From NCBI RefSeq assembly GCF_057098645.1, contig NZ_CM169472.1: DNA of 64,000 nt, one strand, 5' to 3'. Both the position numbers and the translations under genes were made by a program. This document shows, one piece after another, positions 52,983 to 54,125 of this stretch (positions are counted from its first letter, which is position 1; every line of letters starts with the position of its first letter). The notes beneath the pieces were generated by a model. It was given only the letters and a program-made list of their open reading frames with translations, made no database searches and was not told the origin of the DNA.

Positions 52983-54125
52983 TTAAATTTGCTTTTCATA
53001 CAATCGGTAACGCTTGTACGGCTCCGCCCCAATGCGTTCCAGCATGTTATTCATGCCTGTATTGGTTTCGAGGATCCATGACATCTCCAGCGCATCGATC
53101 TTCCGGCGGGCAAACGGATCGCGTAAGGCTTCAATCAATAACAGCGCAATCACCGGGCCGATGCGGCTGAACTGATACTCGTCCCGCACGCCCATCAGCG
53201 GTACTCGCGCAGTTCGCACACCGCTGACTTTCAAACGCCACAGCAATTTTGCCCAGCCGAAGGGAAAGAGCGATCCGTTCAGATCGGCAATCGCCTCGTT
53301 GATGTTCGGCAAGCCGACAATAAACGCGCAGGGTGCAGAATCAATCTCAGCGATATAGATCATATCGTCCGGCACCAGATATTTAAGTTGATCGCCCATG
53401 GTCGCGAATTCATGTTCGGTAAACGGCACAAATCCCCAGTTGTGCTGCCAGCCAGAGTTGAAAATCTCACGCAGGATCTGCATCTCTTCGGCAAACCGCT
53501 GGCGATTGATGCAGCGAATGGTCACCTTTTTGCGCACCTGATCCATCAGTTTTTTTAGCGCCGGAGAGAAAGTGAGATCGGTTCGCTGCATCCACCACGC
53601 CAGTAAATCAATGCCTTTGTGATAACCCAGTTGTTCAATATGCGCGGCATACCACGGTTTGCCGTGTGGCATCATCGCACAGGGTGGTGTGTCAAAACCT
53701 TCAATCAGTAATCCGCTTTCCTGATTGATATTCAGGCTGAAAGGCCCGCTGATCTTACTTGCACCTTGTGACTTCAATCACGCTTCCGCTGCGCCAAACA
53801 ACGCGGCAAAAACCTGCGGATCATCAATGGCGTCAATCATGCCGAAATGACCGGTATCTTCGCCGTAACACTCGCGGTGTAAGGTATCTATTTGCGCGGT
53901 AATACGCCCAACTATCTGCCCCGCTTTTTTTGCCACCCACGCCTGCCAGATGATATGGTCCGTCCCCGGATTCTTCGCAGACAAATGCTCGCTGCGTTCA
54001 ATGAATAAAGGGGGTATCCAGTTTGGATCATCGGGATAAAGTGATGACGGAAAAGCGATAAATGCCTTAAGGTCATTTTTATTAATTACTTTTTCAATTT
54101 TGATCATCAGCAGATCGCATTCCAT
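52983..54125 (-). pseudogene. yghO: yghO-like acyltransferase-family gene with an in-frame TGA after codon 115
   Basis: Two consecutive in-frame ORFs (53778-54125, then 52983-53777 beginning at TTG) separated by a single TGA (...FGAAEA*LKSQGASKISGPF...). Confidence 0.6.

Follow-up and report, generated by a model that had tools for sequence, protein, structure and literature searches.

A nonsense mutation in yghO, the predicted ceramide synthase gene of the Escherichia coli sphingolipid cluster, is common to O145:H28 genomes

Background

Does the in-frame TGA in the yghO gene of an Escherichia coli chromosome reflect a true loss of the gene, and what would such a loss mean for the lipid pathway encoded beside it? 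The question is raised by a stretch of 64,000 nucleotides from contig NZ_CM169472.1 (RefSeq assembly GCF_057098645.1), hereafter called the window. An earlier note on this DNA had described an acyltransferase-like gene broken by one TGA and had offered three options: recent inactivation, readthrough of the stop, or a sequencing error. It had also proposed that the state of the gene decides whether the lipid pathway next to it stops at the free base, provided that YghO acts as the N-acyltransferase there.

Results and Discussion

The yghO reading frame

Translation of the minus strand from 54125 to 52983 (381 codons including the normal terminal stop) revealed a TGA at codon 116 as the sole internal stop, which appears as TCA on the plus strand at 53778-53780 (Table 1). 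The frame is intact on either side, as the earlier note had described it, with the correct coordinates. In the program-made list of open reading frames the gene is split into two entries of the same frame, 53778..54125 (115 aa) and 52983..53777 (264 aa). A full HMMER scan of 1.84 billion representative sequences found 6477 relatives of YghO at E ≤ 1e-3, and both halves aligned over their full length to this one conserved protein family, excluding a chance juxtaposition of two ORFs.

Besides the TGA, yghO of the window differs from intact alleles by 10 to 17 further point differences and by no indels. Codon 116 is TGG in the four intact alleles aligned (LWY24, K-12, O55:H7 CB9615 and PS10-3), indicating that the lesion arose by one G>A transition in the third base of the codon. 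The comparison with orthologs that had been proposed as a check therefore shows that the TGA replaces a sense codon, the TGG (Trp) of other E. coli.

The homologues of YghO in other Enterobacteriaceae are 374 aa long, their first residue corresponding to Met7 (MIKIEK...). For this reason the true start of yghO is probably Met7, at 54107-54105, and the 380-codon model used for E. coli would be six codons too long.

Table 1. Coordinates of yghO, its parts and the neighbouring genes in the window
Feature	Position	Strand	Remarks
glcC, convergent neighbour	52212..52976	plus	ends 6 bp before the yghO stop codon
yghO pseudogene	52983..54125	minus	380 codons + stop
Untranslated C-terminal remnant, 264 codons from TTG117	52983..53777	minus	holds the C-terminal GNAT domain matching solved GNAT acetyltransferases
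In-frame TGA, codon 116	53778..53780	minus	TGG (Trp) in other E. coli; G>A transition, plus-strand base 53778
Kept N-terminal coding part, 115 codons	53781..54125	minus	partial N-terminal GNAT-like domain only
aasR-like fatty acyl-AMP ligase / acyl-ACP synthetase	54529..56217	plus	intact, divergent from yghO
cerR-like NAD-dependent epimerase/dehydratase-family reductase	56214..57128	plus	intact; window-private Glu99Lys at 56508
acpR-like specialised acyl carrier protein	57160..57408	plus	intact
spt serine palmitoyltransferase	57408..58580	plus	intact; NCBIfam NF047599, 600 bits against a cut-off of 500 (equivalog)
lptG and lptF paralogues beside spt	58615..60761	minus	PF03739; as in Caulobacter-type sphingolipid clusters

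The TGA allele is fixed in the O145:H28 lineage

The distribution of the two alleles was determined in 5426 complete E. coli genomes using 55-mer queries with the variant base at the centre; since megablast was run with a 28-base exact word, a match needs the variant base. yghO itself was found by megablast in 4548 of the 5426 genomes and was nearly always annotated 'yghO: protein YghO' among the matches listed. The TGG allele was present in 4504 of the 5426 genomes and the TGA allele in 26, the latter thus making up 26 of about 4530 E. coli yghO alleles. The serotype of the TGA genomes was O145 (O145:H28 or O145:NM) wherever it was stated, six of the 26 carrying no serotype label. Their sources were cattle, humans, food and water, and they came from several groups or laboratories and from several countries, including the USA and Japan. 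Identity of about 100% to the window over the 5.6-kb yghO-spt cluster was restricted to the same 26 genomes, the next best match being 99.2%. The TGA allele is common to every O145:H28-type complete genome in the collection and is a lineage-fixed nonsense mutation; in the O55:H7/O157:H7 relatives of O145:H28 yghO is intact.

Over the gene, yghO of the window is 100% identical to the copy of E. coli O145 strain RM9872. RefSeq/PGAP already flags yghO with an 'internal stop' in RM9872 (USA), where the coordinates correspond exactly, and in O145:H28 16003 (Japan); the TGA is already on public record as an ordinary lineage-specific pseudogene. From 44982 to 62124 (17 kb) the window differs from RM9872 by nine SNPs, all of them transitions, by a CG insertion at 49364 and by a T deletion at 52086.

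A sequencing or assembly error, with TGG as the true codon, would fit a difference of one base in a window that shows other small differences from the references, among them indels in a (CG)n run and a T run. The change in yghO, however, is a substitution and not a homopolymer indel, and 26 complete genomes, produced by various laboratories in various countries, have the identical TGA. The window comes from an O145:H28-type relative, but it is identical to none of the complete genomes in the collection, and all 26 O145:H28-type genomes have at least one mismatch to it over the 5.6-kb cluster. Since it differs from every TGA genome it is a further independent witness of the mutation, a 27th and non-identical source of the same TGA. 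The 26 independently assembled genomes and the window together refute the suggestion of a sequencing error, whose probability we put at practically nil. The finding named beforehand as fatal to the TGA, a sense codon at this site in independent data, did not appear, as the independent O145 assemblies read TGA.

The mutation is not an event of this isolate, because it is common to every O145:H28-type complete genome, and the TGA allele must go back at least to the last ancestor that the sampled genomes share. According to Nakamura et al (PMC7067040), ST32 and ST137 separated in about 1786, and the ST32 clades radiated 130-150 years ago. Any placement of the TGA mutation on these nodes is inferred. 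On time scales of this kind no further decay of the 1.1-kb yghO would be expected, and the clean frame and intact neighbours fit this expectation. The suggestion that yghO is freshly inactivated thus holds in part: inactivation is supported, and it is recent on an evolutionary scale, the ORF being otherwise undecayed, but the lesion belongs to the whole O145:H28 lineage and is not new in this isolate.

The product of intact yghO has a tandem GNAT-type fold

Scans of the restored YghO protein against Pfam and NCBIfam gave no match, and its family assignment therefore rests on the literature, synteny and fold. An AlphaFold2 model built on an alignment of 134 homologues reached a pLDDT of 97 and a pTM of 0.93. 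The best PDB matches of the model in Foldseek were the tandem-GNAT proteins 2wpw, 5kf1, 7q3a and MshD (E 6e-16 to 3e-12, TM 0.55-0.63), and a YghO profile matched solved GNAT chains at positions 304-379 (E 2.5e-4), downstream of the stop. The model and the profile matches both point to a GNAT-type acyl-CoA N-acyltransferase fold. Like YghO, the tandem-GNAT acyltransferases (MshD, 1ozp/2c27; the clavulanate-pathway protein 2wpw; MAB_4324, 7q3a; and the glucosamine N-acetyltransferase 5kf1) have two GNAT-like domains per chain. They share 10-14% identity with YghO and act on other substrates, so the resemblance is one of fold and not of family.

Position 116 is Trp in 114 of the 134 homologues, which are 31-82% identical to YghO, and mostly F, H or Y in the others (F 9, H 4, Y 3, A 1, S 1). 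The model places Trp116 within the N-terminal GNAT-like domain, in its helix 97-113 (residues counted from Met7). A stop at this codon would therefore remove the entire C-terminal GNAT domain together with part of the N-terminal domain.

Readthrough and restart at the stop codon

Of the stop codons UGA is the most prone to readthrough in E. coli, where tRNA-Trp misreads it. A frame open on both sides of the TGA could also be that of a gene under programmed recoding, in which UGA is read as selenocysteine or is efficiently read through and full-length YghO is made. No SECIS-type stem-loop was found 3' of the UGA, however, as the 69-nt segment beginning with the UGA gave no stabler fold than shuffled sequences (z = -0.59) and the region 52900-54500 gave no Rfam match. 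The homologous position is occupied by Trp or another aromatic residue and is never suggestive of Cys or Sec; among the homologues the UGA is neither aligned with Cys/Sec nor conserved, column 116 being mainly W. In addition, the UGA is limited to one young lineage as against TGG in 4504 genomes, and the base that follows it is U, which reportedly provides the most efficient termination context. Selenocysteine insertion and programmed readthrough were rejected after the Rfam scan and the folding analysis, and we consider recoding extremely improbable. Readthrough, which had been one of the options, thus finds no support as a programmed mechanism, the ancestral codon being that of Trp and not Sec or Cys. 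On the other hand, misreading of the UGA by tRNA-Trp would insert the ancestral residue, and basal leakiness may yield a trace of wild-type YghO.

Reinitiation was considered because a start-capable codon, TTG117, abuts the stop (UGAUUG). It opens a 264-codon ORF containing the complete C-terminal GNAT domain, and yghO might thus be a split gene whose 264-aa product, alone or with the 115-aa fragment, keeps acyltransferase activity. TTG is a weak start codon, however, and the anti-Shine-Dalgarno pairing before it (-3.5 kcal/mol) is not notable, 26% of the yghO codons having pairing as good or better. Moreover, the model puts the break within helix 97-113 of the N-terminal domain and not at a domain boundary, so that both pieces would expose incomplete folds. 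Retention of activity through such a restart is in our view very unlikely.

YghO as the predicted ceramide synthase of the cluster

Padilla-Gomez et al (PMC9386255) gave yghO (ECD_02850 of BL21) as the counterpart of Caulobacter CC_1154, an acyl-CoA N-acyltransferase required for dihydroceramide, with E 1e-107, 44% identity and 98% coverage between the two proteins (their Table S2). By this published comparison the bCerS/CerS/Aca protein of Caulobacter crescentus (CC_1154 = CCNA_01212) is a full-length homologue of YghO. Both genes are clustered with spt, acpR, aasR, cerR and lptF/lptG paralogues, and a GNAT-type fold is predicted for YghO as in the bCerS family.

The linkage with spt, acpR, aasR and cerR seen in the window has counterparts in distant homologues 43-46% identical to YghO. 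In a metagenome bin from a hydrothermal vent, one that is about 43% identical directly follows acpR-spt. Another, about 46% identical and from a member of the Kiloniellaceae, shares its cluster with two LptF/LptG paralogues, a cytidylyltransferase-type NTP_transf_3 protein, a CDP-alcohol phosphatidyltransferase (CDP-OH_P_transf), DAGK_cat and spt, a layout resembling the Caulobacter region described in PMC11324152.

YghO could instead be an unrelated GNAT protein, in which case the stop would be irrelevant to the lipid pathway. Such a view can draw on the silence of Pfam and NCBIfam, on an earlier annotation of YghO itself as a DNA-binding protein, on sources that name homologues 'DNA-binding protein' or 'dATP pyrophosphohydrolase', on the inclusion of yghO among candidate lysine acetyltransferases screened in PMC6199490, and on the fact that acylation of a sphingoid base by E. 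coli YghO is a prediction. It has to contend with the published full-length similarity to a protein that is genetically required for ceramide synthesis, with an adjacency to acpR-spt and LptF/G paralogues that is kept in distant lineages, and with one database that labels a homologue 'associated with serine palmitoyltransferase'. We regard it as quite unlikely. The published orthology to CC_1154, the acpR-spt linkage in distant bacteria and the GNAT fold support the conditional claim that yghO encodes the N-acyltransferase of the neighbouring pathway, that is, the predicted E. coli counterpart of the bacterial ceramide synthase bCerS/CerS.

Unlike Caulobacter CC_1154, yghO of the window is broken at codon 116, and for the E. 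coli enzyme the activity is a prediction. In place of the uninterrupted ORF of the bCerS family the window has two fragments, and because of the TGA this copy is a pseudogene derived from the bCerS/CerS/Aca family and not a functional member of it.

The neighbouring genes and the expected consequence for the pathway

No internal stops were found in aasR, cerR, acpR or spt of the window. The five-gene yghO-spt segment is present at ≥80% coverage in 4067 of the 5426 complete E. coli genomes, about three quarters. yghO is transcribed alone and converges with glcC; its nonsense mutation thus lacks an operon-polar target and would exert no polar effect on the lipid genes. The lptF/lptG paralogues, of a kind reported as needed for sphingolipid transport (2026 preprint, 10.64898/2026.04.12.717747), are followed by a YtfJ-family gene, a gene without a Pfam match and a Polysacc_synt flippase-like gene (yghQ). 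Codon 99 of cerR (56508), the reductase gene of the pathway, is AAA (Lys) in the window and GAA (Glu) in O145:H28 16003, O55:H7 CB9615 and PS10-3; this non-synonymous change seems private to the window.

Overexpressed E. coli AasR, AcpR and SPT jointly make 3-oxo-sphinganine in BL21(DE3), whereas none was detected in BL21(DE3) with empty vectors (PMC9386255). In the Caulobacter model Spt and bCerS are cytoplasmic and CerR acts later, in the periplasm, so that N-acylation comes before reduction (PMC11087976); an alternative order of the two steps has also been proposed (PMC11324152). In the pathway literature we found no report of sphingolipids from wild-type E. coli, and the native cluster may be silent.

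Taken with these data, the following course of events is proposed for O145:H28. One G>A transition turned the TGG of the conserved Trp116 of yghO into TGA. Translation would end after 115 residues, leaving a fragment of the N-terminal GNAT-like domain and nothing of the C-terminal one, and from the structural model we infer a loss of enzyme activity. With aasR-cerR-acpR-spt intact, the long-chain base could still be made, but its N-acylation would be absent. If the cluster is expressed, the pathway would stall at the un-acylated base, most likely 3-ketosphinganine by analogy with Caulobacter (sphinganine under the alternative order), as N-acylation precedes reduction in the current bacterial model. 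We consider it highly probable that yghO of O145:H28 is a null or near-null allele through TGG->TGA and that, with the base-forming genes intact, an expressed cluster would give a long-chain base without N-acylation. The proposal that the state of yghO decides whether the pathway stops at the free base is thereby supported for an expressed cluster, with the amendment that the base in question is likely 3-ketosphinganine and not sphinganine.

A further reading gives the stop an adaptive role. O145:H28 would have a working AasR-AcpR-Spt system without a ceramide synthase, and on induction free 3-ketosphinganine or sphingoid base would accumulate or be released; the truncation, altering the envelope or the interaction with the host, would then have been selected and not have drifted. 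We hold this to be quite unlikely.

Other lesions of the locus

The TGA allele of O145:H28 is not the only natural lesion at this locus. In K-12 (AG100, locus 1952-4103) an IS5 element has removed the region from aasR through part of yghQ; it adjoins yghO, where it has taken the place of the first ~12 codons, and the pathway is broken here as well. The two lineages lost opposite parts of it: in K-12 the base-forming genes are gone and a chimeric but open yghO remains, whereas O145:H28 has kept the base-forming genes and lost yghO by a point mutation. In LWY24 (locus 1-91) the aasR fatty acyl-AMP ligase gene is frameshifted. These independent lesions in K-12 and LWY24 indicate that the sphingolipid pathway is evidently dispensable under many conditions, and the stop of O145:H28 is evidently one more instance of its erosion. 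With its single internal stop in an otherwise intact frame, fixed in a young clone, yghO of O145:H28 resembles the other lineage-specific nonsense pseudogenes that PGAP flags in pathogenic E. coli, and apart from the pathway affected nothing distinguishes it from them.

Other features of the window

The glcF gene (48177-49400, minus strand) has an intact 407-codon frame in the window, with an extra CG in a (CG)n run, whereas glcF of RM9872 is annotated 'frameshifted' owing to a 2-bp loss in the (CG)n run; a frameshift shared with RM9872 was thus rejected, as glcF of the window is intact. A 470-aa ORF at 48177..49589 is a mere upstream extension of the glcF frame. At 38798-40441 a 547-aa ORF joins IS66-transposase domains (residues 59-341) in frame with DUF637 and PT-VENN pre-toxin domains characteristic of CdiA/Rhs toxins, and it is probably a junction formed by insertion of an IS into a toxin gene. 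The stretch 40481-41694 is an IS3-family element with orfA (108 aa, HTH_Tnp_1) and orfB (296 aa, rve). It gave 19-40 matches per O145:H28 genome, and the flanking match came in two pieces, indicating that the local structure differs among strains.

Conclusions

The yghO stop is an ordinary annotated pseudogene in a published but little-known E. coli sphingolipid cluster and changes no current view. It is modestly useful as a natural knockout: a major Shiga-toxin-producing lineage, O145:H28, lacks the predicted ceramide-synthase step while its upstream sphingoid-base genes are untouched. O145:H28, O55:H7/O157:H7 with an intact yghO, and K-12, in which the base-forming genes are lost, form a natural allelic series that could serve to ask whether E. 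coli makes sphingolipids and what their role is.
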